A stretch of DNA of 64,000 nucleotides from Acidothermaceae bacterium (GTDB lineage: Bacteria; Actinomycetota; Actinomycetes; Acidothermales; Acidothermaceae), in contig DASVDW010000175.1 of assembly GCA_036380925.1 (NCBI GenBank), positions 55 through 64,054 of the forward strand. Reading direction: 5' to 3'. The notes beneath the pieces were generated by a model. That model ran no database searches. It was given only the letters and a program-made list of their open reading frames with translations, and was not told where the DNA came from. Shown here piece by piece: positions 9,688 through 64,000 of this stretch; position 1 is the stretch's first letter, and every line of letters begins with the position of its first letter. The translations under genes and the position numbers were made by a program.

Positions 9688-9756
9688 GGTGCGCGCCCGT
9701 GGCGGCGCTCACCGCGTAGCCTGGGGCGGCCGGTTGGCGGAGCGGAAGGAGAACGG

Positions 9757-38641: not shown

Positions 38642-39280
38642 ATGGGCTGCCATCATGCGTTCGTGTGGCGACTCGTGGGGGAGGCGAGCCCCCGATGGCG
38701 CGCGCCGGTGGTCGTCGTGCTGACGGCGGTGGCAGTCCTGCTGGCGATCGTCGTCGTCCAGATGATTCGCAACTACCCCTATAGCGCGGGTTCGCCGGCG
38801 GTGCGGGTGACGGTGGCCGGTGGCTGTCCGCAGTCGCTCGGCCAGGCGGTCGACGTCAACAACCCCGGGCCGACTTGGTGGCACGAACTGTGGCACCGCG
38901 ACCGCCTTGCGTTAGCTGGCGCCACTCGGGGCCTGGTGTGCGTCTACGGACAGGATGTCAACGACGCGGCGCCGACCCTTCGGTGGCACGCCGTCATGTC
39001 GGCCGACCAAGCGCGCGCCGTGTCGTCGGCCGCGCACGGCGTGAGCACCAAGCGGTCGCGCGGCACTTTCCATTGCCCCGCTCAGCTGTTCGGGACCGTC
39101 GCCATCGTCGTGCTCGGCTACCCGAGTCAGCCGGACAACGACATCTGGTGGGACTACACCGGCTGCCAAACCGTCGACAACGGCCACGTTCAGGTGTCCC
39201 AGGGGGCCAACGCGTCGTTCGGCGACTTCCAGTCGGCGGTTAGCGCACCGGTGCCGAGCGCACCGCTGCCCGGGCATTAG
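38642..39280 (+). CDS. membrane-anchored hypothetical protein
   Basis: 212 aa. One N-terminal TM helix (VVVVLTAVAVLLAIVVV) followed by a Cys-containing extracytoplasmic domain; no family recognised. Confidence 0.5.
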   Translation: MGCHHAFVWRLVGEASPRWRAPVVVVLTAVAVLLAIVVVQMIRNYPYSAGSPAVRVTVAGGCPQSLGQAVDVNNPGPTWWHELWHRDRLALAGATRGLVCVYGQDVNDAAPTLRWHAVMSADQARAVSSAAHGVSTKRSRGTFHCPAQLFGTVAIVVLGYPSQPDNDIWWDYTGCQTVDNGHVQVSQGANASFGDFQSAVSAPVPSAPLPGH

Positions 39281-39315
39281 GCGGGCCAACCCCGCGGCAC
39301 GGGATACTGATCTCC

Positions 39316-40758
39316 ATGACCTCGCTGCCCGACTTCCTCGACCGCCTTGAGCGCGACGGCGAACTCGTCCGGGTCAAGGCGCAGGTCGACCCGCATCTCG
39401 AGGTCACCGAGATCGTCGATCGCGTCGTCCGCGCCCAGGGCCCGGCGCTGCTCTTCGAAAACGTCAAAGGCAGCAAGCTTCCGTTGGCGATGAACGTCTT
39501 CGGCACCGAGGCGCGCATGGCGAAGGCCCTCGGCGTCAACAGCTTGGACGACGTCGGGACGCGGCTGTCCGAACTGCTCAAACCCGAGTTGCCGCACGGC
39601 CTCAGCGGCCTCAAAGACGCGATGAGCAAGCTCGGCCAGCTTCGAACGGTCCCTCCGAAGAACGTGCGCAAGGGGTCCTGCCAGGACGTCGTCATCAAGG
39701 GCGACAAGGTCGACCTCAACACGCTGCCCGCGTTGCACACCTGGCCGCAGGACGGCGGCGCGTACTTCAACCTCGGCCTGACGCACACCAAGCACCCGGA
39801 AACCGGCCAGCGCAACCTCGGCCTCTACCGGTTGCAACGGCACGACCGCGACACGATCGCGATGCATTGGCAGATCCACAAGGATTCCAACGCCCACCAC
39901 GCGGTCGCCGAGCGGCGGGGCGAGCGCCTTCCGGTGGCGGTCGCGTTCGGCTGCGACCCGGTCGTCACCTATGCCGCGTCAGCCCCGCTGCCGCCCGACA
40001 TCGACGAGTACCTGTTCGCCGGCTTCCTGCGCCAAGAGCGGGTCGAGATGGTCGACTGTGTCAGCGTTCCGCTGCAGGTTCCGGCCGACGCGCAGGTCGT
40101 GCTCGAGGGCTGGCTGGAGCCGGGGGAGCGTCGTCCGGAAGGGCCGTTTGGCGACCACACCGGCTTTTACACGCCGGTCGAGCCGTTTCCCGCGCTGCAC
40201 GTCGACGTCATCACGACGCAGAAGAAGCCGGTGTTCCAGTCGATCGTGGTCGGGCGCCCGCCGGCTGAGGACGGCCCGCTCGGCAAGGCGACCGAGCGGA
40301 TTTTTCTCCCGCTGGTGAAGCTGATGATCCCCGACATCGTCGACATGGACATGCCGATCGAGGGCGTCTTCCATAACTGCGTGATCGTGAGCATCGACAA
40401 GCGTTTCCCCAAGCACGCCCACAAGGTGATGCACGCCATCTGGGGCGCCGGCATGCTGTCGCTCGCGAAGCTGATCGTCGTCGTCGACGCCAACTGTGAT
40501 GTTCACGACTACCGCGACGTCGCATGGCGGGCGTTCGGCAACGTCGACTACAGTCACGACCTCGTGCACGCGGTGGGGCCGGTCGACCACCTCGATCACG
40601 CCAGTTATCAGCAGTTTTGGGGCGGCAAGATCGGCGTCGACGCGACGGCGAAGCTGCCGTCAGAGGGATACACCCGCGGCTGGCCAGACATGATTGCCCA
40701 AGATCGGGGGATCGTCGAACGGGTCACCGCGCGGTGGAAGGAGTTCGGAATCTCGTGA
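39316..40758 (+). CDS. UbiD-family menaquinone biosynthesis decarboxylase (MqnL-type)
   Basis: 480 aa with FENVKGS, YFNLGLTHTKHPETGQRNLGLYR and GPFGDHTGFY motifs of the UbiD family. Forms an operon with the prenyltransferase and UbiX genes, as at the Streptomyces SCO4490-4492 locus. Confidence 0.9.
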   Translation: MTSLPDFLDRLERDGELVRVKAQVDPHLEVTEIVDRVVRAQGPALLFENVKGSKLPLAMNVFGTEARMAKALGVNSLDDVGTRLSELLKPELPHGLSGLKDAMSKLGQLRTVPPKNVRKGSCQDVVIKGDKVDLNTLPALHTWPQDGGAYFNLGLTHTKHPETGQRNLGLYRLQRHDRDTIAMHWQIHKDSNAHHAVAERRGERLPVAVAFGCDPVVTYAASAPLPPDIDEYLFAGFLRQERVEMVDCVSVPLQVPADAQVVLEGWLEPGERRPEGPFGDHTGFYTPVEPFPALHVDVITTQKKPVFQSIVVGRPPAEDGPLGKATERIFLPLVKLMIPDIVDMDMPIEGVFHNCVIVSIDKRFPKHAHKVMHAIWGAGMLSLAKLIVVVDANCDVHDYRDVAWRAFGNVDYSHDLVHAVGPVDHLDHASYQQFWGGKIGVDATAKLPSEGYTRGWPDMIAQDRGIVERVTARWKEFGIS

Positions 40759-41666
40759 GCAGCGCAACCTGGTCGTTCGAAGGGCCGTCCGATCGCGGCC
40801 GAGTGCGGGCGTTCCTCGACCTCGTGCGATTCGAGCACTCCGTGTTCGCGCTGCCGTTCGCCTACATCGCGGCGCTGTCGGCCATGAACGCGGCGAACGG
40901 CCACGTGCACTGGATCCAGTTGCTGCTAGTGACGATCGCGATGGTCGGCGCCCGCACCTTCGCCATGGCGGTCAATCGCATCGTCGACCGGCACATCGAC
41001 GCTCGCAATCCGCGTACCCGTGGCCGCGAGTTGGTCGTCGGCGCCGTCTCACTTCGGACCGCGTGGGTGGGCGCCGTCGTCGCGCTCGCGATCCTCTTCC
41101 TCGCCGCTTACGGGTTGAACACGCTGTGCCTGGCGCTGTCGCCGATCGCGGCGATCGTGCTGGCCGGTTATCCGTACGCGAAACGGTTCACCTGGGCGCC
41201 GCACGCCGTCCTCGGCCTGGCGCAAACCATTGGGCCGATCGGCGCCTGGCTCGCCGTCACCGCGCACTGGTCGTGGACCGCGGTGGTGCTTGGCGCCGCG
41301 GTTGGGTTTTGGATCGGCGGCTTCGACATCATCTATGCGTTGCAGGACTACGAGATCGACCGCGAGATTGGCGTCAAGTCGCTGCCGGCGCGCTTCGGCC
41401 CGCACGCGGCGCTGGCCTGCTCCCGCGCCGCGCACTACGTCACCGTGCTGTTCTTGCTGTGGTTCGGCTTGCTCGCCGGCTTCGGCTGGGTCTGGACGCT
41501 CGGCGTCATCGTGGCGGCGTTCGCGTTGGCCTACGAGCAGCGTCTGGTGAAGCCGACCGACCTGTCCAACGTCAACAAGGCGTTCTTCACGGTGAACGGG
41601 TTCGTGGGCATCGGGTTGCTCCTCTTCGCGCTGGTCGACCTCGTCTCGCGCGGCCTGCGGCCGTGA
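40755..41666 (+). CDS. mqnP: UbiA-family prenyltransferase for the futalosine pathway (MqnP-type)
   Basis: GTG 40755 overlaps the upstream stop (GTGA). LVRFEHSVFALPF, NRIVDRHIDARNPRT (NxxxDxxxD) and YALQDYEIDRE (second Asp-rich motif). Confidence 0.85.
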   Translation: MSSATWSFEGPSDRGRVRAFLDLVRFEHSVFALPFAYIAALSAMNAANGHVHWIQLLLVTIAMVGARTFAMAVNRIVDRHIDARNPRTRGRELVVGAVSLRTAWVGAVVALAILFLAAYGLNTLCLALSPIAAIVLAGYPYAKRFTWAPHAVLGLAQTIGPIGAWLAVTAHWSWTAVVLGAAVGFWIGGFDIIYALQDYEIDREIGVKSLPARFGPHAALACSRAAHYVTVLFLLWFGLLAGFGWVWTLGVIVAAFALAYEQRLVKPTDLSNVNKAFFTVNGFVGIGLLLFALVDLVSRGLRP

Positions 41667-42301
41667 CGTCCGACCGTGCCCCATGGGTGGTCGGGGTGAG
41701 CGGCGCGAGCGGAACTCCTTACGCCGCAGCGGTCTTGCGCGGTCTGCTGGCGGCCGGCGAGCCGGTCGACTTGATCGTGTCGCGCGCCGCGCGACTGACG
41801 CTGCTCGACGAGACCGGCGTCGCCTGGCGTGACGACGCCGAAAGCCTCAGGCGGTGGCTGGGGTCGGCGCTTGACGCCCCGCTGCCGGCGCCGTCGGATT
41901 CCGACGTCCGGTTTTGGGCGGTCACCGATTTCGCCGCCGGGCCGTCCAGCGGCTCCTATCGCACCAAGGGCATGGTGGTGGTGCCCGCGAGCACCGCGGC
42001 GGTGGCCGGCATCGCGCTCGGCCTGTCGAAGGACTTGCTGCAGCGGGCCGCTGACGTCACGTTGAAGGAGCGCCGGCGGCTGGTGGTGGTGCCGCGGGAA
42101 GCCCCGCTGACGGGGGCGACGCTGCGGCATCTGGTGTCTCTGGACGAAGCGGGCGCCGTCGTGCTGCCGGCGAGCCCTGGGTTCTACGCCAAGCCGAAAA
42201 GCATCCAGCAGTTGGTGGATTTTGTGGCGGGTAAGGTGCTCGACGTGCTCGGGGTGCCGCACGACCTGTTCACTCGGTGGGCCGGCCGGCTCGGCGATTA
42301 G
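41663..42301 (+). CDS. ubiX: UbiX-family flavin prenyltransferase
   Basis: GTG 41663 overlaps the upstream stop. WVVGVSGASGTPYA, MVVVPASTAAVAGIALG and PREAPL motifs. Confidence 0.9.
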   Translation: MTSDRAPWVVGVSGASGTPYAAAVLRGLLAAGEPVDLIVSRAARLTLLDETGVAWRDDAESLRRWLGSALDAPLPAPSDSDVRFWAVTDFAAGPSSGSYRTKGMVVVPASTAAVAGIALGLSKDLLQRAADVTLKERRRLVVVPREAPLTGATLRHLVSLDEAGAVVLPASPGFYAKPKSIQQLVDFVAGKVLDVLGVPHDLFTRWAGRLGD

Positions 42302-42338
42302 CCTCCGAGCCGACCGGGCGTCGGCCCAGATCCGCCGA

Positions 42339-42578
42339 TCAAGAGTCGGAGACTCCGATGGCGAAGCTGCCGGCCTCGAACTCGTCTTCACCGTTGAGCA
42401 GCGCGCGAACCTCAGACTCCCGAAAACGCCGGTGGCCGCCGGGCGTGCGGATGCTTCCGATTCGCCCGGACGCCGCCCAGCGGGTGACGGTCTTCGGGTC
42501 GACCCGGAAGAGGGTCGCGACCTCTCCAGGGGTGAGCAGGCGGTCACGGTTTTCCACGTCGTCCCCTTTCCTGGACAC
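42339..42578 (-). CDS. bldC: BldC-family MerR-like developmental DNA-binding protein
   Basis: LLTPGEVATLFRVDPKTVTRWAASGRIGSIRTPGGHRRFRESEVRALL is nearly identical in pattern to Streptomyces BldC. The true start may be the internal GTG at 42557, which is preceded by AGGAAAGGGG. Confidence 0.85.
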   Translation of the reverse strand: MSRKGDDVENRDRLLTPGEVATLFRVDPKTVTRWAASGRIGSIRTPGGHRRFRESEVRALLNGEDEFEAGSFAIGVSDS

Positions 42579-42592
42579 GGCGCTCTCTCGAG

Positions 42593-42645
42593 CACTCCGG
42601 GTCTTTCGAACACTCCGGGTCTTTCGAACGTTGCAGGTCTTTCAA
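42593..42645. repeat. 18-bp tandem direct repeat (2 perfect copies plus 1 degenerate) just upstream of bldC
   Basis: cactccgggtctttcgaa at 42593-42610 and 42611-42628, then cgttgcaggtctttcaa at 42629-42645. Located 15-67 nt upstream of the bldC GTG at 42578. Confidence 0.9.
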
Positions 42646-43007
42646 CACCGAGTGGTCGGTTAACCGCGCCGTGTTTGGTCTTACGTTCGTGGACCCCATG
42701 TGATGTGTACACGCACATGTGCCATCCCGTCTGCCGTTGACGCGCGATTGTTGCCTTGTGCCAAAAAAAGTGGGGAGGATCGTCACGAGGGGAACACGCA
42801 CGGTGACAAAAGTCGGGACCTAGGACCCTGGTGCGCGCTTTCCGTCGCTTCGTCATCACGCTTGGTTATCGGTGGTCACAAACTGGGCGCCCCGCTTTGG
42901 GAGGCTCTCGCCAGCCCGTGTGCGCAGTCGTCAGAGGCACTCGTGCATGCTGGACAGGCACGTCGCGATCCGGCGCGACAGTTGGCGACAGGCAGGTGAG
43001 GGGCGAC

Positions 43008-44156
43008 GTGGACGCAGGACTTCAGCGCGAGCTCGAAGCCAAGGTGCTGGCCGGGGATCGGCTCACATATGAGGACGGCGTCGCGCTGTACGCGTCGGAC
43101 GACCTCGCCTGGCTCGGCGACCTGGCGCACCAGGTGCGCACCCGCAAGAACGGCGACCGGGTGTTCTTCAACATCAACCGGCACCTCAACTTGACCAACG
43201 TGTGCTCGGCGTCGTGCGCCTATTGCAGCTTTCAGCGCAAGCCGGGCGAGGCGGACGCCTACACGATGCGGGTGGAGGAAGCTGTCGAGCTCGCCAAGCA
43301 GATGGAGCCCGAGGGCATCACCGAGCTGCACATCGTCAACGGTTTGCACCCGACCTTGCCGTGGCGGTACTACCCGCGCTCGCTCCGGGCGCTGAAAGAG
43401 GCGCTGCCGAACGTCGCGCTGAAGGCGTTCACCGCCACCGAGATCCACTGGTTCGAGAAGATCTCCGGAATGCCCGCCGACGAGATCCTCGACGAGCTGA
43501 TCGACGCCGGCCTGGACTCGCTCACCGGCGGCGGCGCGGAGATCTTCGACTGGGAGGTACGGCAGAAGATCGTCGACCACGCCACCCATTGGGAGGACTG
43601 GTCGCGCATCCACCGCCTCGCGCACGCCAAGGGGCTGAAGACGCCGTGCACGATGCTGTACGGCCACATCGAGGAGCCCCGGCACCGGGTCGACCACGTG
43701 CTTCGGCTGCGAGAGCTGCAAGACGAGACCGGTGGGTTCCAGGTCTTCATCCCGTTGCGCTTCCAGCACGACGCGAACGGCGACCCGCGCAACCGCTTGA
43801 TGACCCAGCCGATGGCCACCGGCGCCGAGGCCTTGAAGACGTTCGCGGTGTCGCGGCTGTTGTTCGACAACGTCCAGCACGTGAAGGCGTTCTGGGTGAT
43901 GCACGGGCTGACGACGTCGCAGCTGGCGTTGTCGCACGGCGCCGACGACCTCGACGGCTCGGTGGTCGAATACAAGATCACCCACGACGCCGACCACTTC
44001 GGCACCCCCGCCACGATGCACCGCGACGACCTGCTCGAGTTGATCCGCGACGCCGGTTTCACGCCGGTCGAGCGCGATACTAAGTACAACGTGCTGCGGG
44101 TGTACGAGGGGCCCGACCGGGGTCGTCGTGACACGCCGCAGCCGATGCCGGTATGA
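43008..44156 (+). CDS. mqnE: aminofutalosine synthase (radical SAM)
   Basis: GTG 43008. VDAGLQRELEAKV..., CSASCAYCSF radical-SAM CxxxCxxC, LHIVNGLHPTLPWRYYP and GGFQVFIPLRFQH. Closely resembles Streptomyces MqnE (SCO4494) as I remember it. Confidence 0.88.
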   Translation: MDAGLQRELEAKVLAGDRLTYEDGVALYASDDLAWLGDLAHQVRTRKNGDRVFFNINRHLNLTNVCSASCAYCSFQRKPGEADAYTMRVEEAVELAKQMEPEGITELHIVNGLHPTLPWRYYPRSLRALKEALPNVALKAFTATEIHWFEKISGMPADEILDELIDAGLDSLTGGGAEIFDWEVRQKIVDHATHWEDWSRIHRLAHAKGLKTPCTMLYGHIEEPRHRVDHVLRLRELQDETGGFQVFIPLRFQHDANGDPRNRLMTQPMATGAEALKTFAVSRLLFDNVQHVKAFWVMHGLTTSQLALSHGADDLDGSVVEYKITHDADHFGTPATMHRDDLLELIRDAGFTPVERDTKYNVLRVYEGPDRGRRDTPQPMPV

Positions 44157-44167
44157 GGTAACCCGCT

Positions 44168-45372
<1,205 letters not shown>

Positions 45373-45492
45373 CCCGCCCGCGGTCGCGTTCACGCTCCCA
45401 CACCACCCGTTGTGATCAGACTTGATAACAGCGCGCGCGAGGGTCGTTCGGGCTGCGACGATCAAGGCATGTCGAGGCCTGAGGGGGAGACC

Positions 45493-45903
45493 ATGCCTGC
45501 AGCCGGCGCCCTGCCTTCCACGACGTCCGCACCCTTGACCGGGGCCGCGCGGGTGTTCAGCGTGATCGTCGCCGACGACGCGGCCGGCATTCGCGCGCTC
45601 ATGAGCACGCTGCTCTCGCTGGAGCCGGATTTCGACGTCGTCGGCCAGGCCAGCGACGGCGCCGAGGCCGTCGACCTGGTCGTGCGGCTCAAACCCGACC
45701 TGCTGGTCATCGACGTGACCATGCCGGTGATGTCCGGCTTGGAGGCGATCGAGGCGGTGCGCGAGCGCTCGCCGTCCACTCGGGTTGTGGTGTTGACCGG
45801 GGAGCGGCGTGCGCTGCCGGAGGGCGCGCAGGCGCAGATAGAGAAAGGCACGCCGAACGACGTGGTCATCGACACCCTCCGCGGCGTTTGCCGCGCCGGT
45901 TAG
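45493..45903 (+). CDS. stand-alone response-regulator receiver domain protein
   Basis: ATG 45493 preceded by GAGGGGGAG. VIVADDAAGIR (acidic pocket), LLVIDVTMPVMSG (phospho-acceptor Asp), VVVLTG and EKG (conserved Thr and Lys). No output domain before the stop. Confidence 0.75.
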   Translation: MPAAGALPSTTSAPLTGAARVFSVIVADDAAGIRALMSTLLSLEPDFDVVGQASDGAEAVDLVVRLKPDLLVIDVTMPVMSGLEAIEAVRERSPSTRVVVLTGERRALPEGAQAQIEKGTPNDVVIDTLRGVCRAG

Positions 45904-45945
45904 CTCGATCAGCGCGGGGACCGGGCGCGGGCTAGGCTTTGGCTC

Positions 45946-47124
45946 GTGGCTGATGTGCGCGCGATCCTCGACCGGGCCGCTGACGGCGGTCGCATCTCGC
46001 CTGAAGAGGCGCTGACTCTTTACACCGACGCGCCACTGCATTCGCTAGGGCGCGCGGCCGACGTCGTCCGGCGGCGTCGTTTCGGCGACACCGCCAGCAT
46101 CGCCACCTACCTCATCGACCGCAACATCAACTACACCAACGTGTGCGTCACGGCGTGCAAGTTCTGTGCGTTCTACCGATCGCCCAAGCACGCCGAGGGC
46201 TGGACGCATTCGCTTGAGGAGATCCTGCGGCGCTGCGGCGAGGCCGTTGAGCTCGGAGCCACGCAGATCATGCTGCAGGGCGGTCACAACCCCGACCTCG
46301 GCATCGAGTGGTACGAGGAGACGTTCTCGGCGATTCGCGCGGCCTACCCGCAGCTGGCGCTGCACTCGCTCGGCGGCTCGGAGGTCGTGCACATCTCGCG
46401 GGTGTCCGGGCTGTCGTTCGAACAGGTGATCCGGCGGCTGCACGCGGCCGGTCTCGACTCGTTCGCCGGCGCCGGCGCGGAGATTTTGGTCGACCGGCAG
46501 CGGCAGGTGATCGCACCGCTGAAGGAGTCGGGCGCGGTGTGGCTCGAGGTGATGGAGACCGCTCACCGGCTGGGCGTCGAGTCGACCGCCACCTTCATGA
46601 TGGGCACCGGCGAGACGAACGCCGAGCGCATCGAGCATCTGCGGTTGATCCGCGACGTGCAAGACCGCACGGGCGGCTTCCGGTCGTTCATCCCGTGGAC
46701 TTACCAGCCGGAGAACAACCATCTGCGCGGTCGCACGTTGGCCACGCCGCTGGAGTACCTGCGGTTGCTCGCCGTGGCGCGGCTGTTCTTCGACAACATC
46801 GCGCACCTGCAGGTTTCTCAGCTGACGCTCGGCAAAGAGGTCGGTCAGCTCGGATTGCACTACGGCGCCGACGACCTCGGCTCGGTGATGCTGGAAGAAA
46901 ACGTGGTGTCGTCGGCGGGCGCCCGACACCGGTGGAACCTCGCGGAGCTGATCCACCTGATTCGCGCCGCCGACCGGATCCCCGCGCAGCGTGACACGCT
47001 CTACAACCACCTACGCGTGCATTGGACGCCGGCAGACGACCCGGCGCCCGACGACCGGATTCACTCCCACGTGGCGTCGACCGCCCCCGCGTTCCGTCGC
47101 GACCTCCCACTAGTCGCCAGCTAA
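45946..47124 (+). CDS. mqnC: cyclic dehypoxanthinyl futalosine synthase (radical SAM)
   Basis: 392 aa with NYTNVCVTACKFCAF radical-SAM motif, IMLQGGHNPDL and GGFRSFIPWTYQPENN. It is a paralogue of MqnE whose sequence pattern resembles MqnC. Confidence 0.85.
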   Translation: MADVRAILDRAADGGRISPEEALTLYTDAPLHSLGRAADVVRRRRFGDTASIATYLIDRNINYTNVCVTACKFCAFYRSPKHAEGWTHSLEEILRRCGEAVELGATQIMLQGGHNPDLGIEWYEETFSAIRAAYPQLALHSLGGSEVVHISRVSGLSFEQVIRRLHAAGLDSFAGAGAEILVDRQRQVIAPLKESGAVWLEVMETAHRLGVESTATFMMGTGETNAERIEHLRLIRDVQDRTGGFRSFIPWTYQPENNHLRGRTLATPLEYLRLLAVARLFFDNIAHLQVSQLTLGKEVGQLGLHYGADDLGSVMLEENVVSSAGARHRWNLAELIHLIRAADRIPAQRDTLYNHLRVHWTPADDPAPDDRIHSHVASTAPAFRRDLPLVAS

Positions 47125-51441: not shown

Positions 51442-51813
51442 ATGGTCTTCAGCTACGTTCCGGTCCTCGCCCTTTTCCTACTCGCGGGCGGCTTCGCGGT
51501 CTTCTCGATCATCGCGGGGCGGCTGAGCGGTCCGCGCCGCTACAACCGGGCGAAGTACGACGCCTACGAGTGCGGCATCGAGCCGACACCCCAGCCGGTC
51601 GGCGGCGGCCGGTTCCCGGTGAAGTACTACCTGACGGCGATGCTGTTCATCGTCTTCGACATCGAGATCATCTTCTTGTACCCCTGGGCGGTCGCCTTCG
51701 CGCAGAAGGGCGGCGCCACGGTGTTCCTCTTCGTCGAGATGGTGCTGTTCATCGTGACCGTGTTCATCGCCTACGTGTACGTGTGGCGGCGCGGCGGACT
51801 GGAATGGGATTGA
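51442..51813 (+). CDS. nuoA: NADH-quinone oxidoreductase subunit A
   Basis: ATG 51442. 123 aa with YECGIEP, YYLTAMLFIVFDIEIIFLYPW. Confidence 0.93.
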   Translation: MVFSYVPVLALFLLAGGFAVFSIIAGRLSGPRRYNRAKYDAYECGIEPTPQPVGGGRFPVKYYLTAMLFIVFDIEIIFLYPWAVAFAQKGGATVFLFVEMVLFIVTVFIAYVYVWRRGGLEWD

Positions 51814-51822
51814 GAACCTGAC

Positions 51823-52377
51823 ATGGGCATCGAAGAAAAGCTGCCCAGCGGCTTCCTGCTGACCACGGTCGAGAAGCTGGCCGGGCAGGTGCGGGCCGGC
51901 TCGCTGTGGCCTGCCACGTTCGGCCTGGCCTGCTGCGCGATCGAGATGATGTCCACCGGCGCCGGTCGCTACGACCTCGCCCGGTTCGGCATGGAGGTCT
52001 TCCGGGCGTCGCCGCGGCAGGCCGACCTGATGATCGTCGCGGGCCGCGTGTCGCAGAAGATGGCCCCCGTGCTGCGCCAGATCTACGACCAGATGCCGGA
52101 GCCCAAGTGGGTGCTGGCGATGGGCGTTTGCGCGTCGTCCGGCGGGATGTTCAACAACTACGCGATCGTGCAGGGCGTCGACCACGTCGTCCCGGTCGAC
52201 ATGTACCTGCCGGGCTGCCCGCCGCGGCCGGAGATGCTGATGCACGCGATCCTGGAGCTGCACGAGAAGATCAAGACCACCAAGCTCGGGTCGCAGGGCC
52301 GTCGGCACGCCGCCCAGGCGGAGGCCGAGGCGCTTGAGGCGGTGCCCACGCACCAGATGAAGGACTTGTTGCGGTGA
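51823..52377 (+). CDS. nuoB: NADH-quinone oxidoreductase subunit B
   Basis: 184 aa. The N2-cluster Cys motifs are [17 protein letters not shown] and LPGCPP. Confidence 0.95.
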
Positions 52378-53036
52378 GCGATCAGCCTGTGGGGCAGCCT
52401 TCCGGTGCGCCGCAGCCGTCCGGCCCGCAGGCCGAGACCGGCGAGGCCACCGGAAACCTGCCGGTAGGGGGCGCGCCCGGCTTGCCGTCGTCGCCGCGGC
52501 CGTTCGGCGGCTACTTCGACCACGTGGCGGACGCGATCGCCCGGGCTTATCCCGAGATCTCCGCCGCGATCGAGCGGACGGTGGTCGACCGGGGGGAGCT
52601 CACCTTGCACGTGCGCCGGGAGCATCTGGCCGGAGTCGCCCAGCAGTTGCGCGACGACCCCGACCTGCGCTTTGAGCTGCTGTCGTCGCTGTCGGGAGTG
52701 CACTACCCGATGGACGCCGGTCGCGAGCTGCACGTGGTGTACGAGCTGACGTCGATGACCCACAACCGGCGGGTGCGGCTCGAGGCGGTGGCCCCTGACG
52801 CCGACCCGCACATCCCGTCGGTGACCCGGATTTGGCCGACCGCCGACTTTCATGAGCGGGAGACCTGGGACCTGTTCGGCGTCGTCTTCGACGGGCACCC
52901 GGCCTTGACTCGAATCATGATGCCGGACGACTGGCCGGGCCACCCGCAACGCAAGGACTACCCGCTCGGCGGCGTGCCCGTGGAGTACAAGGGCGCGAGC
53001 GTGCCGCCACCGGATGAGCGGAGGCAATATGCGTAG
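52374..53036 (+). CDS. nuoC: NADH-quinone oxidoreductase subunit C
   Basis: 220 aa with [20 protein letters not shown] and a low-complexity N-terminus. The GTG overlaps the nuoB stop. Confidence 0.92.
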
Positions 53037-54372
53037 CGACGGAGCGCACGCCACGACGGACCCCTACGCCGGGCCCGCTGACTCAGGCGACCGCGTCTAC
53101 ACGGTGAGCGGCGGCGACTGGGACGAGATCGCGGCCGACGCCACCGAGCAGCACGCCGAACGCATCGTCGTCAACATGGGCCCGCAACACCCGTCGACGC
53201 ACGGCGTGCTTCGACTGGTGCTCGAGCTGGAGGGTGAAACGGTCACCCAGGCCCGCGTCGTCATGGGTTACCTGCACACCGGCATCGAGAAGAACTGCGA
53301 GTACCGCACGTACACCCAAGCGGTCACCTTCTTGACCCGCGCCGACTACCTGTCGCCGTTCTTCACCGAGACCGCGTACTCGATGGCCGTGGAGAAGCTG
53401 CTCGGCATCACCGAGCAGGTGCCCGAGCGGGCGAAGGTCATCCGGGTGCTGATGATGGAGCTCAACCGGATCTCCTCGCACCTGGTGTGGTTGGCCACCG
53501 GCGGCATGGAGGTCGGCGCGCTGTCGGCGATGCTGTACGGCTTCCGCGAGCGCGAGCAGATCCTCGACATCTTCGAGATGATCACCGGGCTGCGGATGAA
53601 CCACGAGTACGTCCGACCCGGCGGGGTGATCCAGGACCTCCCACCAGGGGCGGTTGAGAAGATCCGCGAGTTCTTGCAGATCATGCCGAAGAAGATCGAC
53701 GAGTATCACAACCTGCTCACCGGCCAGCCGATCTGGATCAAGCGGTTGCAGGGCGTCGGGTACCTCGATCTCACCGGCTCGGTGGCGCTCGGCACCACGG
53801 GCCCGATCATGCGCGCCGCCGGCTATCCGTGGGACTTGCGCAAGACCCAGCCGTATCTGGACTACGAGACATATGACTTCGACGTCCCGACGCATCCGGA
53901 CGGCGACTGCTTCGCCCGTTACCTGGTGCGCATGGACGAGATGCGCGAGTCGTTGAAGATCGTCGAGCAATGCCTCGACCGGCTGCGGCCGGGCCCGGTG
54001 ATGGTCGAAGACAAGAAGGTGGCCTGGCCGGCGCAACTCGCGCTCGGCGCCGACGGCATGGGCAACTCCCTCGACCACATCCGGCACATCATGGCGACGT
54101 CCATGGAAGCGCTGATCCATCACTTCAAACTGGTCACGGAGGGTTTCCACGTGCCACCGGGCCAGGTCTATGTCCCGGTCGAGTCGCCGCGCGGCGAGCT
54201 TGGCGTGCATCTGGTGAGCGACGGCGGCACCAAGCCGTATCGGGTGCACCTGCGCGAGCCGTCGTTTGTGAACCTGCAGGCCGTCGCCGCCACCTGCGAG
54301 GGCAGCCTTATCGCCGACGTCATCGCCGCGGTCGCCAGCCTCGATCCGGTCATGGGCGGGTGCGACCGATGA
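53014..54372 (+). CDS. nuoD: NADH-quinone oxidoreductase subunit D
   Basis: [14 protein letters not shown], the HLVWLATGG region, and ESPRGELG. An alternative start at ATG 53029 lies 4 nt after GGAGG. Confidence 0.94.
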
Positions 54373-55142
54373 GCGGCGAAGGAACCCAGGTGCCTATGCA
54401 ATCCGCGTCGTCCGACGAACTGCCGATGGTCACGCTCGACCCGCGGCTGGGTCCAGCCGCGGTGGCGAGCGATCCGTTGTCGGACGACGCGAAGCAGCGG
54501 ATCCGCGAGCTTGGCGCGCAAGTGATCGCCCGTTACCCGCGGCCGCGCTCCGCGTTGATGCCGCTGCTGTATCTCGCGCAGGCCGAGCAGGGTTACGTCT
54601 CGCCCGACGGCATCAAACTGGTCGCCGAGATGCTGGAGCTCACCACCGCCGAGGTCTCCGCGGTCAGCACCTTCTACACGATGTACAAGCGGCGGCCTTG
54701 CGGTGATTATGCGGTCGGCGTGTGCACCAACACGCTTTGCGCGGTGATGGGTGGCGACGCGATTTTCGACGCGTTGAAAGAACATCTCGGCGTCGGCAAC
54801 AACGGCACCACGCCCGACGGCAAGGTGACCCTCGAGCACATCGAGTGCAACGCGGCTTGCGACTACGCGCCGGTGATGATGGTCAACTGGGAGTTCTTCG
54901 ACAACCAGACCGTGGAGTCGGCCAAAGAACTCGTCGACCGGTTGCGCGCCGGTGACCCGCCGACGCCCACGCGGGGTGCGCCGTTGCGCACCCACACCGA
55001 GACATCCCGGGTGCTCGCTGGTTTTGCCGATGGCGCGGCGAACTCCGGCCCGTCGGCAGGTCCCGCGTCGCTCGCCGGCCTGCGACTCGCCCGCGAACGC
55101 AACGAGACCGCGCCGGCGATGAACCAGGAGGGCAACCAGTGA
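54369..55142 (+). CDS. nuoE: NADH-quinone oxidoreductase subunit E
   Basis: ATG 54369 overlaps the nuoD stop. The 2Fe-2S Cys pattern is VCTNTLCAV...[11 protein letters not shown]. Confidence 0.93.
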
Positions 55143-56443
55143 GCTTTAATCTCACGCCGGTGCTCACCGCGCAATGGGGCGCCGATCAGTCGTGGACGCT
55201 CGCGGCCTATGAGCGCACCGGCGGCTACCAGGCGCTGCGCCAAGCGCTGGAAATGGAGCCGGACGCGCTGATCCAGCTGGTGAAGGACTCCGGGTTGCGC
55301 GGTCGCGGCGGCGCGGGATTCCCCACCGGCATGAAATGGGGCTTCATCCCGCAAGGTGACGGCAAGCCGCACTACCTGGTCGTCAACGCGGACGAGAGCG
55401 AACCGGGCACCTGCAAAGACATCCCGATGCTGATGGCGACGCCGCACACGCTGGTCGAGGGCGTCATCATCTCCGCCTACGCGATTCGGGCCAACCACGC
55501 GTTCATCTACGTGCGTGGCGAGGTGCTGCACGTCGTCCGCCGGCTGCTCAACGCGGTCGAAGAGGCGCGCGCCGCCGGCTACATCGGAGGCAACGTCCTC
55601 GGCAAGGGCTTCGACATCGAGGTCACGGTGCACATCGGCGCGGGCGCCTACATCTGAGGTGAGGAGACCGCGCTGCTGGAGTCGCTGGAGGGCTTCCGCG
55701 GCCAGCCGCGATTGCGGCCGCCGTTCCCCGCTGTCGAGGGTCTTTACGCGTGCCCGACCGTCATCAACAACGTCGAGACGATCTCGTCGGTGCCGGCGAT
55801 CGTTCGCGGCGGCGCGCAGTGGTTCCGCTCAATGGGCACCGAGAAATCCCCTGGATTCAAAATTTTCTCGCTGTCCGGCCACGTCGCTCGGCCCGGCCAG
55901 TACGAGGCGCCGCTCGGCATCACGTTGCGGGAGTTGCTCGACGCGACCGGCGGGATTCGCGAAGGCCACGAACTGAAGTTCTGGACACCTGGCGGTTCGT
56001 CGACCCCGCTGTTCACCGCCGCGCACCTCGACGTCCCGCTCGACTTCGAGGGGCCGCCACAGCACGGCTCGATGCTGGGCACCACGGCCCTCCAGATCTT
56101 CGACGAGACCACCTGCGTGGTGCGCGCCGTCAAGCGGTGGAGCGAGTTCTACGCGCACGAGTCGTGCGGCAAGTGCACCCCCTGCCGCGAAGGCACCTTC
56201 TGGTACGTGCAGATTTACGAGCGGCTTGAGAACGGCACGGCGACGGAGGAGGACATCGAGACATTGCTCGACCTGTCCGACAACATCTTGGGCCGCGCCT
56301 TCTGCGCCCTCGGTGACGGCGCCACCAGCCCGGTCACGTCGTCCATCCAGCACTTCCGCGACGAGTACGTCGCGCACTTCGAGCAAGGCGGCTGCCCGTT
56401 CGACCCGGTCGCCTCTACCGTTTTCGCTGGAGCGAGCGCCTAA
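55139..56443 (+). pseudogene. nuoF: NADH-quinone oxidoreductase subunit F, interrupted by a single in-frame TGA (55655-55657) at the invariant Cys codon; nonsense mutation, base-call error or recoding event
   Basis: ORFs 55139..55657 and 55712..56443 are in the same frame, with no other stop between them. The translation reads GAGAYI-[TGA]-GEETALLESLEGFRGQPR, where NuoF proteins have GAGxYICGEETAL. All other NuoF motifs are intact. Confidence 0.85.
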
Positions 56444-58923
56444 TGACCGTCACGTCCAACCCACCGGCCGCCCAGCCCCCGGCGCCGCCGTCCGACCTTG
56501 TCACCTTGACGGTCGACGGGTTCGAGGTCTCCGTGCCCAAGGGCACGCTGGTCATCCGGGCGGCCGAGTTGCTCGGCATCCAGATCCCCCGATTCTGCGA
56601 GCACCCGCTGCTTGACCCGGTCGGGGCGTGCCGGCAGTGCCTGGTCGAGATCGAGGGTCAGCGCAAGCCGATGGCGTCATGCACCACCACGGTCACCGAA
56701 GGCATGGTCGTCAAGACGCAGATCACTTCCGCGGTGGCCGAGAAGGCGCAAAACGGCATCATCGAGCTGCTGCTCATCAACCACCCGCTCGACTGCCCCA
56801 TCTGCGACAAGGGCGGCGAGTGCCCGCTGCAGAACCAGACGATGACCAACGGGTACAGCGAGTCCCGGTTCCACGACGTCAAGCGCACGTACCCGAAGCC
56901 GATCGCGATCTCGGCGCAGGTGTTGCTCGACCGGGAGCGGTGCATCTTGTGCACGCGATGCACTCGATTCGCGCAGCAGATCGCCGGTGACCCGTTCATC
57001 GAGATGCTCGAGCGGTCGGCGCTTGAGCAGGTCGCGACGTTCGAAGACCAGCCGTTCAACTCTTACTTCTCCGGCAACACGATCCAGATCTGCCCGGTCG
57101 GCGCGCTCACCGGTTCGCAATACCGCTTCCGGTCACGGCCGTTCGACCTGGTGTCGTCGCCGAGCATCTGCGAGCACTGCGCGTCGGGTTGTCAGCAGCG
57201 CAACGACCACCGTCGCGGCAAGGTGCTGCGCCGTCTCGCCGGAGTCGACCCGCAGGTCAACGAAGAGTGGAACTGCGACAAGGGCCGCTGGGCGTTCAAC
57301 TACGCGTTCGCGGCCGACCGCCTCGACACGCCGCTGGTTCGCGAGAACGGCGAGCTTGTGCCTGCGTCGTGGCCCGAGGCGTTGCGGGCGGCGGCGGCCG
57401 GTCTGGCCGAAGCCCGCGGCCGGGCGGGCGTGCTGGTCGGCGGTCGGGTCACCACCGAAGACGCTTACGGGTACGCGAAGTTCGCTCGGGTCGCGCTCGG
57501 CACCAACGACGTCGACTTCCGCGCTCGGGTGCATTCCGCTGAAGAACTCGACTTCCTGGCGTCGCACGTCGCCGGTCGGTTCCTCGATGTCACCTACGGC
57601 GACCTCGAGGCCGCGCCGGCGGTGTTGCTGGTCGGTTTCGAGCCAGAAGAAGAGTCGCCGATCGTCTTCTTGCGGCTGCGCAAGGCGGCGTTCAAGAAGC
57701 GGACGGCGGTCTTCTCCATCGCCCCGCTGGCCACACACGGCTTGCAGAAGATGCGTGGCCGGCTGCTCGCCGCCGTTCCAGGCGGTGAGGCGAGCCTGTT
57801 GTCGGCGCTGAAGAACAACAAGCTGGACGACGGCGGCGGCGCGCCCGCGGGCGTCGACGACGAGGCCTACCGCGCCAACTTCGCCGCGATCGTCGAGGCG
57901 TTGGCCAAGCCGGGCGCGGTCATCATGGCCGGCGAGCGGCTGGCGGGTGCGCCGGGAGCGCTTTCCGCGGCCGCCGCGCTCGCCCGAGCCACCGGGGCGA
58001 AGCTGGCCTGGGTGCCGCGACGCGCCGGCGAGCGAGGAGCGCTCGAGGCCGGCGCCGCCCCGACGCTGCTGCCGGGCGGTCGTCCGGTCGCCGACGCCGA
58101 GGCCGCCGCGCCGGTCGCGTTGCGTTGGGCCACCACCCTCCCGACCGCCCCTGGGCGCGACACCTCCGGCATCGTCGCCGCCGCGACGGCCGGCGAGCTG
58201 GCCGCGCTCGTGGTCGCCGGCGTCGACCCCGACGACCTGCCCGATCCCGAAGCGGCACGGGCCGCCCTGCAGGCGGCGCCGTTCGTCGTCAGCCTCGAGA
58301 TCCGGCGCAGCGCGGTCACCGACCGCGCCGACGTCGTCTTCCCGGTCGCCGCGGCGATAGAGAAGGCCGGCACCTTCCTTGACTGGGAGGGCCGTTCTCG
58401 GCCGTTCGACGCGTCCTTGCGCGACACCGGCCAGCTGTCCGACTACCAAGTGCTGAACGCGATCGCCGATGAGATGGACGTCCATCTCGGCTTGCCAGAC
58501 CTGCGCACCGCGCGCGCGGAGCTCGCCGCGTTCGCCGGTGGGTACAAGGGTTCGCCGGCCGCACCCGAGGTGGCGCCACCCGCGGCGCCGCGCGCGGGCG
58601 GCGGGTCGGTCGTGCTCGCGAGTTGGCACGACCTGCTCGACGCGGGCAGTCTGCAAGACGGCACACCGTTCCTGTCGGCCACCGCTAAGCCGGTGCGGGC
58701 GCACCTGTCGCGAGCCACCGCTCGCGCGCTCGGCGTCGCCGACGGTGGTCGCGTCGCGATCGGCACCGATCGCGGCTCCATCACGCTGCCGGTCTACGTC
58801 ATCGACATGGTCGACGACGTGGTCTGGGTCCCGACCCGCGCGTCGGGCAGCGAGGTCCATCGCACGCTCGGCGTGGCGGCTGGCGCCGTCGTCCGGATTG
58901 CCGTTGCTGGAGGTGTCGGTTGA
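56443..58923 (+). CDS. nuoG: NADH-quinone oxidoreductase subunit G
   Basis: 826 aa. N-terminal 2Fe-2S/4Fe-4S Cys motifs ([47 protein letters not shown]) and a molybdopterin-like C-terminal domain. Confidence 0.95.
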
Positions 58924-60335
58924 CCGGCGCGCATGTGATGTCCGCGTATGTCGCGGCGGCCCCGCAGTTCGCTCCGCAGACCGAGCGCGACCTGTGGTGG
59001 CTGATCATCGTCAAGGCCGTCGCGGTCTTCGCGTTCCTCGTGCTCACCACGCTGTTCATGATTTGGGCCGAGCGACGGGTTGTCGCGCGCATGCAGCAGC
59101 GCATTGGCCCCAACCGGGTGGGCCCGCAAGGCTTGCTGCAGAGCCTCTTCGACGGCATCAAGCTGGCGTTGAAGGAAGACATCATTCCTAACGCCGCCGA
59201 CAAAGCGGTGTTCATCCTCGCGCCCATCTTGTCCGCGATCCCCGCGTTCATGGCCTTCGCGATGATCCCGTTCGGCCCGACCGTCTCGATCGCCGGCCGG
59301 CACACCAACCTGCAGCTCACCGACCTGTCGGTCGCCGTGCTGTTCATCCTCGCGATGAGCTCGATGGGCATCTACGGCATCGTGCTAGGAGGCTGGTCCA
59401 GCGGATCGACCTACCCGCTGCTCGGCGGCGTCCGGTCAGCCGCGCAGATGGTCAGCTACGAGATCGCGATGGGCCTGTCGTTCGTCGGCGTTTTCCTTTA
59501 CACCGGCACTCTTTCGACGTCCGGCATCGTCGACGCCCAGACGCACAAGTGGACCGTGCTGGTCGCGTTGCCGTCGTTCATCATCTACGCGATCGCGATG
59601 GTCGGTGAGACCAACCGCGCGCCTTTCGACCTGCCCGAGGGCGAAACCGAACTCGTCGGCGGCTTCCACACCGAGTACACCTCGTTGAAGTTCGCCCTGT
59701 TCTTCCTCGCCGAGTACATCAACATGGTCACCGTTTCAGCGCTGATGACCACGCTGTTTCTCGGCGGCTGGCGGGCGCCGTGGCCGATTTCGCTGTGGGG
59801 TTCGGCGAACACCGGCTGGTGGCCGCTGCTGTGGTTCCTCGTCAAGATCGGCATCGTGCTGTTTGTCTTCATCTGGCTGCGGGGAACGCTGCCTCGGTTC
59901 CGCTACGACCAGTTCATGAAGTTCGGCTGGAAGGTGCTGATCCCGGTCAACCTGGTCTGGATCCTCATCGAGGCCGGGCTGAAGATGGTGTCGCGCACCG
60001 CGCTGTACATCTGGGGTGGCTCGATCCTGGCGCTGGTGTTGATCGGGCTGTTCATCGCTGACGCGGTTCAGGCCCGCAACCAAAGGCTCGCCGAAATCGA
60101 CGCGCAAGAGGCCGCCGAGCGGCCGTTCGACCCGTACGCCGGCGGATTCCCGATCCCGCCGATGCCTGGGCAGGAACTGCCGACGCAGCGGCCGGTGCCG
60201 GTGGGTGTCGCGTCGTCCGGGCACGAGATCACCGGTTCACTTCCGCCGCACGTCATCACCGACATGAGGAGCGACGAGATCAGCGACGGCGAGACCGACG
60301 CACACGACGAGTCCGATGGAGGCCATCGTGACTAA
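58920..60335 (+). CDS. nuoH: NADH-quinone oxidoreductase subunit H
   Basis: [49 protein letters not shown], and an acidic C-terminal extension as in Streptomyces. The start may be ATG 58935. Confidence 0.93.
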
Positions 60336-60939
60336 CTTCCTGCCCGGGCCGTTGCGCGGTTTCGGCGTCACCTTCGGCACGATGTTCCGGCCGGTCAACA
60401 CTGAGCTCTACCCCGACGAGAAGAAGCCGACGATGCCGCGCTTCCACGGTCGGCACGTGCTGAATCGCCACCCTGACGGCCTGGAGAAGTGCGTCGGGTG
60501 TGAGTTGTGCGCCTGGGCCTGCCCGGCCGACGCCATCTACGTCGAGGGCGCCGACAACACCGACGAGGAGCGGTACTCGCCCGGCGAGCGCTACGGACGC
60601 GTCTACCAGATCAACTACCTGCGCTGCATACTGTGCGGGCTTTGCATCGAGGCTTGCCCGACGCGCGCGCTCACGATGAGCAACGAGTACGAACTCGCCG
60701 ACGACAACCGCGCCGACCTCATCTACACCAAGGAGCAGCTGCTCGCGCCCCTTGCGCCCGGAATGGAGTTGCCGCCGCACCCCATGCGCCTCGGCGAGGC
60801 GAAGGACTACTACCGTGGCACCCCGGCCGCGCACGTCATGAGCGGCGACGTCGAAGACAGCAGCCGGCAAGGCAGCGTGCTGCGGCAGGAGCAGGCGCAC
60901 TCCGACGTCCAAGACAAGGCAGAAGGAGTCAACCGCTGA
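60316..60939 (+). CDS. nuoI: NADH-quinone oxidoreductase subunit I
   Basis: Two 4Fe-4S ferredoxin motifs: [12 protein letters not shown] and [12 protein letters not shown]. Confidence 0.94.
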
Positions 60940-61784
60940 TGCCGACTGCCATCCTCGCGTCCGGCCTCAACGCCAGCGGCCCGGAGACCGCGGTGTTTTG
61001 GATCCTCGCGCCGATCGCGGTCATCTTCGCCCTGGGAATGGTCTTTTCCCGGCACACCGTGCACGCCGCGTTGATGCTCGGCGGCGTGATGCTCATTCTC
61101 GCCGTCTTCTATGCGGCGCAGGACGCGCCATTCCTCGCGTTCGTGCAGGTGATCGTCTACACCGGCGCCGTCATGATGCTGTTCTTGTTCGTGCTGATGC
61201 TGGTCGGCGTCGACACCAAGGACAGCCTCGTCGAGACGTTGCGCGGCCAGCGGTTCGCCGGAATTGTCGCCGCTATCGGCTTCTTGCTGCTGTTGTTCAC
61301 CGGCATCGCGAACGCCGGCATCAAGGTCAGCAAGGGCCTGCACTCGGTCAACTTCGCCGACGGCCAGCCGACGCGGGGCGTGCAAAACGCCGGTGGCAAC
61401 GTGTACCAGATCGCGAAACTGCTGTTCGACCGCTACGTGTTCGCGTTCGAGGCGACGTCCGCGTTGCTCATCACCGCCGCGCTCGGTGCGATGGTGCTGG
61501 CGCATCGGCAGCGGCATGCTCCGCGGCCGACGCAGCGCGAGCTCATGCAGCAGCGTTTCAAGTTCGGCACCCACCCGACGCCGCTGCCGGGCCCTGGTGT
61601 GTACGCGCGGCACAACGCCGTCGACACGCCTGCCCTCCTGCCCGACGGCTCGCCGTCCCCGCTCAGCGTCCCGACATCGGTTGAGTTGGTCAGCCAAAAG
61701 CACGGCCGCGAACCACGGCCAGCCGAGCTCGGCTCGTCCGCGGCCGCGCATCACCCCAGCTCAGGGAAGGGTCAGACCGAATGA
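60939..61784 (+). CDS. nuoJ: NADH-quinone oxidoreductase subunit J
   Basis: ATG 60939 overlaps the nuoI stop. It has a hydrophobic N-terminal half ([24 protein letters not shown]) and a long hydrophilic tail. Confidence 0.9.
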
Positions 61785-62080
61785 GCCCTACCTTTTACCT
61801 GTACCTGTCGGCGATTCTCTTCACGATCGGCACCCTCGGCGTGCTGTTGCGCCGCAACGCGATCGTGGTCTTCATGTGCATCGAGTTGATGCTCAACGCC
61901 ACGAACTTGGCGCTGGTCACCTTCTCACGCGTGAACGGCACGCTCGACGGCCAGGTGATGGCCTTCTTCGTGATGGTGGTGGCGGCGGCTGAGGTCGTCG
62001 TGGGGCTTGCCATCATCGTGTCCGTGTTCCGCACCCGCCGCTCGGCCTCGGTCGACGACGCGAACCTGCTGAAGTACTGA
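61781..62080 (+). CDS. nuoK: NADH-quinone oxidoreductase subunit K
   Basis: 99 aa with three TM helices and the [22 protein letters not shown] motifs. Confidence 0.94.
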
Positions 62081-62150
62081 TGATTCCGGAGAGGCAGCAC
62101 GTGACTTCACCCGAGAGCACGCGCACCCGCACCGTCGGCGGTGGCCGGTC

Positions 62151-63851
62151 GTGAACCTTGCAGCGCTTCACACCGCCGCGACGTTGAGCCCGACCGCACA
62201 CACCACCGGGGCCTTCTCCTTCACCTGGTTGCTCGTGGCAATCCCGCTTGCCAGCGCGGCGGTGCTCCTGCTTGGCGGACGTCGCACCAACCGTTGGGGC
62301 CACCTCCTTGGCGTCGCCGCGCCGCTGGCGTCGTTCGTGCTCGGCGTCGTGTTGTTCGCACAGCTGCTTGGAAAGCCGGCGTCCGAGCGCAGTTTCGACA
62401 ACCACCTGTTCAGCTGGACGTTTGTGGGGAACTTCAAGGCGCCCGCCAACTTCCAGATCGACCCGCTGTCGATCTCCTTTGTGCTGCTGATCACCGGCGT
62501 CGGCTCGCTGATCCACATCTACTCGGTCGGCTACATGGCGCACGACGCCGGTCGGCGGCGGTTCTTCGCGTACATGAATCTGTTCGTGTCCGCGATGCTC
62601 CTGCTCGTTCTCGCCGACAACTACCTCGCGCTATACGTCGGCTGGGAAGGCGTCGGCTTGGCGTCGTACCTGCTGATCGGGTTTTGGTACCACAAGCCGT
62701 CGGCCCGAACCGCCGCCACAAAGGCGTTCGTGGTCAACCGGGTTGGCGACTTCGGCCTGTCGCTGGCAATCATGTTGATGTTCGCGACGTTCGGCACGTT
62801 CAGTTTCGCCGGCGTGTTCCCGTCCGCAAGCGACGCTGACCACGCTGCGATGACGGCGATCGGCTTGCTGCTGCTGCTCGGCGCATGCGCGAAGTCCGCG
62901 CAGGTGCCACTGCAATCCTGGCTCGGCGACGCGATGGAAGGCCCGACGCCGGTCTCCGCGCTCATCCACGCCGCGACCATGGTGACCGCCGGCGTTTATC
63001 TGGTGGCCCGATCAGCGCCCATCTTCAACGTGACGCCGACCGCCCGACTCGCGGTCACCGTCGTCGGCGCCGTCACGCTGCTGTTCGGCGCGATCATCGG
63101 CTGCGCGAAGGACGACATCAAGAAGGCCCTGGCTGCCTCGACGATGAGCCAGATCGGTTACATGATGCTCGCGGTCGGGCTCGGCCCGGCCGGTTATGCG
63201 TTCGGCATCGCGCACCTGCTCACCCACGGTTTCTTCAAGGCCGGGCTGTTCCTCGGCGCCGGCTCGGTGATGCACGGCATGAACGACGAGGTCGACATGC
63301 GCCGGTACGGTGGGTTGGCCAAGTACATGCCGTGGACGTTCGCGACCTTCGGCCTTGGCTACCTCGCCATCATCGGCTTCCCCGGGCTTTCCGGATGGTT
63401 CACCAAGGACGCCATCATCGAGGCGGCCTTCCACAAGGGCGGCACCTCGGGTTACCTCCTCGGTTCGGCGGCGCTGCTCGGCGCCGCGATCACCGCGTAC
63501 TACATGACGCGCGTGATGCTCATGACGTTCTTCGGCGAAAAGCGCTGGGCGGACGACGCGCACCCGCACGAGTCGCCCGAGGTCATGAAATGGCCGATGG
63601 TGATCCTCGCGATCGGTTCGGTCGGTCTTGGCTACCTGCTCGTGCTCGGCAGTCGGTTCGCGGACTTCCTCGCGCCGGTCGTCGGCGAGGCGGAAGACAC
63701 CGCCTTCAAACCGATCGGCCTGGTCGGCGTGTTGACCTTCATCGTGATGCTGGCCGGCATCGGCGTCGCGTATCTGCAATACGGACGACGCCGCGTGCCA
63801 GCGGTCGCTCCCGCCGCCGGCCCGCTTGTGGTGGCCGCGCGGCGCGACCTG
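62151..63851 (+). CDS. nuoL: NADH-quinone oxidoreductase subunit L, first ~567 codons only (no stop; frame continues into unrelated sequence)
   Basis: Absent from the ORF track because no stop occurs before the window end. GTG 62151. My translation gives [74 protein letters not shown] and ...[10 protein letters not shown], where NuoL proteins normally continue with Y-G-D-A-F-N (start of the lateral helix). Confidence 0.88.
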
Positions 63852-64000
63852 CTCGGCCTCGCCTCCGAGCAGAGCCTGTACAACCTGGCCGCCCGCACCA
63901 TCGAGCTGGAGGTGGTCCCCGCCTGCCGCGCGTACGGCGTGGGGATCCTGCCCTGGAGCCCGCTCGCGGGCGGGCTGCTGGGCGGGGCGCTCGCGAAGGC
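63852..64000 (+). CDS. internal fragment of an aldo/keto reductase, fused in frame to nuoL; runs off the window
   Basis: The translation [49 protein letters not shown] matches the conserved AKR core (Q-x-x-YNL, E-x-E-[VI]-[LIV]-P, G[IV]G[VIL]-x-[PA]-[WY]-SPL-x-GG-x-L-x-G). Confidence 0.7.

Follow-up and report, generated by a model that had tools for sequence, protein, structure and literature searches.

The nuoF gene in the 64,000 nt stretch of Acidothermaceae DNA analysed here (the window) carries a single in-frame TGA in place of a conserved cysteine codon, and we conclude that this triplet is very probably an ordinary stop without recoding, whether it arose by mutation or as an error in the assembled consensus. 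Our leading interpretation, which we hold to be evenly balanced between right and wrong, is that a private C>A substitution (TGC to TGA) has given rise to a real and very young nonsense (null) allele of nuoF. The premature stop is thus of an already known kind, either a strain-private nonsense allele or an assembly error, and the nuoF TGA should not be carried on as a candidate selenoprotein or recoding event.

The nuoF reading frame and its operon

The nuoF frame (55139..56443, forward strand) comprises 435 codons and, when the window was translated, proved to be interrupted only by the TGA at 55655-55657, with no frameshift, as the original prediction had stated. The surrounding sequence is tac atc TGA ggt gag gag acc, the translation reads HIGAGAYI*GEETALLESLEG, and the triplet constitutes codon 173, where it splits the FMN domain (Complex1_51K) at position 110 of the 150-position Pfam profile. 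The part of the gene 3' of the stop retains the end of the FMN domain together with the SLBB and NADH_4Fe-4S (N3 cluster) domains, all matched in Pfam, which bears out the earlier claim that the conserved motifs beyond the TGA had been kept. At its 5' end the GTG start codon overlaps the stop codon of nuoE as GTGA and at its 3' end the TAA overlaps the ATG of nuoG in a TAATG junction, so that the overlapped and coupled arrangement described for the neighbouring nuo genes was seen on both sides.

With the exception of codon 173, the window NuoF has the same amino acid sequence as the uninterrupted NuoF (434 aa) encoded on a conspecific contig, and its best solved homologue is Mycobacterium smegmatis NuoF (8e9g_F, E = 7.8e-221). 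The Complex1_51K, SLBB and NADH_4Fe-4S architecture is found across both fragments, which are positioned between nuoE and nuoG. By architecture, operon position and similarity the locus is therefore a bona fide nuoF, although it does not possess an open frame for the full subunit. The NCBI record for the source contig (64,098 bp, from a third-party Acidothermaceae assembly derived from a metagenome) carries the same TGA, and annotates the 5' piece as a hypothetical protein of 172 aa (HEX7106660.1, locus tag VF218_11890) and the 3' piece as a 217-aa product (HEX7106661.1) of a CDS starting at GTG 55790. Each of these two fragments was found on exactly one contig among ~15 billion proteins. The record was reached through the protein clusters, whereas NuoG, NuoB and both fragments gave no exact hit in the contig index.

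The operon order nuoA-L is compact and unbroken in the window, the junctions from nuoA to nuoE being short overlaps or gaps of no more than 23 nt. The features of the operon and of the interrupted gene are as follows.

51442-51813, forward strand: nuoA, intact
51823-52377, forward strand: nuoB, intact
52374-53036, forward strand: nuoC, intact
53029-54372, forward strand: nuoD, intact
54396-55142, forward strand: nuoE, intact; its stop is TGA and overlaps the nuoF start
55139..55657, forward strand: N-terminal nuoF fragment, 172 codons plus stop; Complex1_51K profile positions 1-110 of 150; HEX7106660.1
55655..55657, forward strand: in-frame TGA, nuoF codon 173; Cys in every relative, TGC in conspecifics, private C>A at 55657
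55658..56443, forward strand: nuoF remainder, 261 codons plus TAA; FMN-domain end, SLBB and N3 4Fe-4S; differs from the intact conspecific gene by two synonymous changes only
55697..55710, forward strand: short GC stem cgcgg/ccag/ccgcg; ordinary coding sequence, not a SECIS
56443-58923, forward strand: nuoG, intact
58920-60335, forward strand: nuoH, intact
60316-60939, forward strand: nuoI, intact
60939-61784, forward strand: nuoJ, intact
61781-62080, forward strand: nuoK, intact
62151-63857, forward strand: nuoL, cut off by the apparently chimeric contig end

The block from nuoG to nuoL (56443..63857, forward strand) is 99.8% identical to the conspecific contig L081. From 63858 the window diverges from L081, after nuoL codon 569, and the final stretch (63858-64000) continues in the same open frame as nuoL with an aldo/keto-reductase fragment (PF00248 profile positions 159-199). 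To judge from this comparison, the junction at 63858 looks like a chimeric, misassembled end of the source contig, at which nuoL is truncated and as a result of which nuoM and nuoN are missing here. The approximately 50 other genes of the window are intact and have full-length Pfam matches.

Codon 173 in conspecific contigs and wider relatives

Codon 173 is covered by conspecific contigs from three other metagenome samples, namely L081/L087 (JGI sample 3300047677), L088 (3300047108) and L089 (3300047153), and is TGC in all three. The TGA is accordingly a third-position, one-base change from a Cys codon, as had been proposed, the base concerned being the C>A at 55657. Over the 12 kb shared with L081/L087 (window 51840-63857) the identity is 99.825%, with 21 mismatches and no gaps; 19 of the 21 differences from L081 are synonymous, one is missense (nuoG A553E) and one is the nonsense change to TGA. 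If single bases of these genes were changed at random, 25.6% of the changes would be synonymous, 71.6% missense and 2.8% nonsense, so that a ratio of 19 synonymous to 1 missense was observed where approximately 1 to 2.8 would be expected at random. Purifying selection on the nuo operon is therefore strong in this population, and the stop is either very recent or artefactual. The nuoG A553E difference was considered as a second suspicious C>A change and set aside, as this position is variable, the relatives having A, T, E, D, Q, S or still other residues.

Over the part of the window that all three contigs cover (~54.26-55.92 kb), no base other than that at 55657 is private to the window. The window alleles at 54282, 54707 and 54710 are common to L088 and L089, and synonymous variants private to the window are located at 62633, 62834 and 62879. 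On the 3' side of the TGA, the first difference from the window is at 56092 in L081 (435 nt downstream) and at 55813 in L088; two of the three conspecifics are thus identical to the window over the 150 nt or more that follow the codon. L089 has, at window position 55701, a Gly to Ala change in the otherwise conserved EGFRGQPR, along with a cluster of nearby substitutions, and may represent a divergent strain or a low-quality contig.

Cysteine is equally constant further afield. Of 80 species-level relatives, whose NuoF identity is 74-91%, 73 have TGC at the codon, seven have TGT and none has TGA, and in the protein cluster (90% identity) to which the C-terminal fragment belongs, 14/14 members read GAGAYICGEE. 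A Cys also occupies the homologous position in the solved structures of M. smegmatis NuoF (8e9g_F) and plant NDUFV1, so that the earlier assertion of a conserved Cys in characterised subunits holds for these and for every relative examined. The proposed inspection of the codon in the closest relatives consequently speaks for a private change, with TGC in the three conspecifics and TGC or TGT elsewhere, and against recoding.

When 241 million metagenome records were scanned for GAGAY[I/V]-TGA-GEETA, the motif was recovered from four contigs only: L090 (TGA at 683), L091 (7445), and L092 and L093 (both on the reverse strand). These belong to four unrelated lineages, their NuoF sequences being 75, 42, 50.5 and 49.6% identical to that of the window and their G+C contents 0.53-0.71, and no downstream structure is shared among the four. 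For the two contigs whose names record assembler coverage the values are 1.8x and 5.0x, and L093 has an odd Leu-to-Arg change three residues after the stop (GEETARLES). On these sequences, TGA codons at the NuoF Cys in metagenomes appear to be sporadic and do not form a clade. Two NuoF database entries from metagenome assemblies, P0001 (574 aa) and P0012 (516 aa), contain internal duplications of ~80-140 residues, the duplicated part of P0001 coming from a different strain; both are assembly chimeras that inflate homology scores.

Selenocysteine, the genetic code and the downstream RNA

Bacterial insertion of selenocysteine (Sec) depends on a SelB-binding hairpin, the SECIS, immediately 3' of the UGA (PMC13449736). 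The 81 nt of RNA starting at the codon were predicted to fold with -38.6 kcal/mol (z = -0.93 relative to dinucleotide shuffles), while the homologous segments of the 80 Cys-coding relatives averaged -36.1 ± 6.2 and 37.5% of them were at least as stable as the window; the TGC version of the same segment was more stable than the TGA version (-42.5 vs -38.6). The best hairpin has its apical loop starting 38 nt 3' of the UGA. No Rfam family matched anywhere in the window at gathering thresholds, nor did any of the Rfam SECIS families match 55600-55800 at E <= 10, and with the unexceptional fold this agrees with the original prediction, in which no convincing SECIS had been seen. The short cgcgg/ccgcg stem reported at 55697-55710 was found there; it is unchanged in the TGC-carrying L081 and L088 and broken by two substitutions in L089. 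Since L081 and L088 encode Cys by TGC and have the same downstream RNA as the window, no insertion signal was acquired with the change. Searches of the 64-kb window revealed no tRNA, tRNA-Sec included, and Pfam searches found no SelA, SelB, SelD or formate dehydrogenase among its approximately 50 genes. Alignment of the UGA with Cys was thus the one selenoprotein characteristic observed; a distinguishable SECIS and conservation of the UGA in orthologues were not.

UGA is moreover the normal stop codon in this organism, because TGA ends approximately 35 of the 51 high-GC3 reading frames in the window, that of nuoE included (window G+C 68.8%). No internal TGA was detected in the other window genes. 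We accordingly rejected genome-wide reassignment of UGA (codes 4 or 25), TGA being the main terminator in the window and no other in-frame TGA being present. Two further sets of suspected in-frame stops, one joining 44467-45372, 45373-45903 and 45904-47124 and the other joining 8689-9687 and 9688-10686, turned out to be separate complete genes.

Programmed insertion, in which UGA173 would be read by Sec-tRNA(Sec) and SelB with a downstream SECIS to yield Sec-NuoF, draws on the exact alignment of the UGA with the conserved Cys of a redox enzyme and on the fact that some actinobacteria possess Sec machinery (PMC13449736; PMC5029168). We nevertheless consider it extremely improbable. Conspecifics 99.8% identical to the window encode Cys by TGC, two of them with the same downstream RNA; the fold is matched in stability by many Cys-coding homologues and exceeded by its own TGC version; the apical loop starts 38 nt from the codon and the small stem is broken in L089; no SECIS family was matched; the window is devoid of tRNA-Sec, selA, selB and selD; and the motif TGA occurs only four times in the metagenome records scanned, each time in an unrelated lineage. 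Further, NuoF is absent from the top-20 bacterial selenoprotein families (PMC5029168) and the formate dehydrogenase alpha subunit is the predicted sole selenoprotein in mycobacteria (PMC13449736), and our search of the literature on Sec-containing NuoF and on selenium use in Acidothermus returned nothing relevant. Selenocysteine at codon 173 was rejected on these grounds, and the suggestion of a Sec-containing NuoF is not supported by the comparison with conspecifics and orthologues. The same very low probability is given to the broader proposition that the TGA is real and read as sense, by Sec insertion or by efficient read-through, so as to produce a working NuoF that has Sec, or some other amino acid, next to the FMN. 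Were the TGA decoded as Sec, respiratory complex I would gain its first example of a selenoprotein subunit, arising from one base change without a dedicated SECIS.

Known systems place these results in perspective. The nuoF TGA resembles SelB/SECIS-dependent insertion of the fdhF/fdhA type in having an in-frame UGA at the position of the homologues' Cys in a redox enzyme, but differs from it in that nuoF is without a SECIS and without a conserved UGA, and that no Sec machinery was seen in the window. A second comparison concerns RnfC, which we presume to share the NuoF-type Complex1_51K domain. If it does, the nearest documented Sec case in a NuoF-related protein would be PrdC, which belongs to the PrdC or 'RnfC-like' selenoproteins of Clostridia, described as homologous to RnfC (PMC3091704; PMC5029168 Table 3). 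However, the Sec of PrdC is located in a C-terminal CxxU redox motif and not at the FMN-site Cys (PMC3091704), and PrdC-type proteins occur in Sec-rich anaerobes as part of the proline reductase system and not in complex I. In high-GC actinobacteria, finding UGA where a Cys is conserved does not on its own amount to evidence for selenocysteine.

Origin of the stop codon and genes elsewhere in the window

The original prediction had also named a recent nonsense mutation or a sequencing or assembly error as simpler explanations, and the private C>A together with TGC in three conspecifics supports that view. Our current working hypothesis is that the C>A substitution arose in the strain dominating the one soil sample behind the assembly. 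Translation would then end after residue 172, inside the FMN-binding domain, and the 172-residue product would have neither the FMN/NADH site nor the N3 cluster. Ribosomes would no longer reach the TAATG junction, with loss of translational coupling from nuoF to nuoG, and complex I would be deprived of its NADH-input module, leaving the cell dependent on other NADH dehydrogenases. Such a loss can be tolerated in an actinobacterium, because a nuoF deletion strain of M. smegmatis is viable and in liquid culture grows without noticeable defect; the authors of that study suggest that the type II NADH dehydrogenase Ndh may supply enough activity (PMC10068793). That strain is a close parallel, in that the FMN subunit of an actinobacterial complex I is disabled and this is tolerated alongside another NADH dehydrogenase (PMC10068793); it differs from the present case, in which a putative allele has a single point change and no further decay in an operon that is strongly constrained. 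A decaying pseudogene within an eroding operon was rejected, given the single lesion, the ratio of 19 synonymous to 1 missense differences and the intactness of all other nuo genes.

A null allele and a consensus error, which cannot be separated by sequence alone, have the same biology at the site. Under the second of these, the organism has TGC, and a third-party short-read assembly has called the consensus base at 55657 wrongly as A, with no biological feature behind it, and we regard this as a serious possibility that falls somewhat short of being probable. The change is a singleton, absent from three conspecific contigs of other samples; its two protein fragments occur on one contig only in the 15-billion-protein collection; the same contig has an apparently chimeric end at 63858; the four other motif TGAs lie in unrelated lineages, two of them on contigs of low recorded coverage and one beside the GEETARLES oddity; and the preponderance of synonymous differences argues that a functional NuoF is needed. 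In these respects (a singleton, a chimeric junction on the contig, similar TGAs on low-coverage contigs) the case is like the consensus errors and chimeric ends of short-read metagenomes. It departs from typical assembly errors in that the window contig is long and otherwise clean and its variants are like real polymorphisms: the other differences from conspecifics are almost all synonymous, several are common to other samples, none of the approximately 50 other window genes is broken, and at the depth that a 64-kb contig would usually imply, errors in single reads should be out-voted by a de Bruijn assembler. The same observations weigh in favour of the null allele, since the contig's other variants look like genuine selected polymorphism, several of them recurring in other samples, the contig looks well assembled save for its last ~140 bases, with no other gene broken, and its length of 64 kb would suggest reasonable read depth. 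Against the null allele, a high-frequency null in a core respiratory gene is a priori uncommon under very strong purifying selection, the contig end at 63858 is misassembled, and the allele is without an independent sighting (one contig among ~15 billion proteins).

UGA is the leakiest stop codon in bacteria, and this general property is what speaks for a leaky allele, in which a near-cognate tRNA (Trp or Cys) would read the UGA at a low level and complex I would be reduced but not abolished; nothing specific in the sequence points to it. We consider this alternative unlikely: no stimulatory structure or context sets the site apart from Cys-coding homologues, Trp, the usual UGA misreading, would replace a Cys found without exception in the relatives examined, and termination of most window genes by TGA argues for efficient UGA termination. 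Should the null allele be real, it is one more young loss-of-function allele and would show that the NADH-input module of complex I is dispensable, at least for a short time, to an uncultured Acidothermaceae strain of the soil, which fits with what is seen in mycobacteria; should it be an artefact, it illustrates that an internal stop in a metagenome-assembled genome needs read-level confirmation.

A second NuoF-like protein is encoded elsewhere in the window, at 27771-29108, and has Complex1_51K, SLBB and NADH_4Fe-4S domains and the motif FISGEES, with Ser where NuoF has Cys. Its gene is overlapped by that of a Ferric_reduct (PF01794) membrane protein (27166-27816), and the NuoF-like protein may work as a stand-alone NADH/FMN module that feeds a haem reductase of the membrane. 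As a replacement for NuoF this paralogue was rejected, being distant, having Ser at the motif and lying beside a ferric-reductase-type membrane protein; in our view it is no subunit of complex I. The region just upstream of nuoA-L (39244-47124) contains UbiD- and UbiA-family genes, two radical-SAM genes of the CofH/MqnC type and an MqnA-like gene, the last recognized by eye from its translation, and together the genes of this region look like a cluster for the futalosine route to menaquinone. Within the cluster, the gene at 45373-45903 is in the same frame as both of its neighbours and appears, by eye, to encode a response-regulator receiver domain. At the beginning of the window (1-1167) is a gene for a bacterial protein with both the LMF1 and LMF1_C lipase-maturation-factor domains, a family better known from animals.
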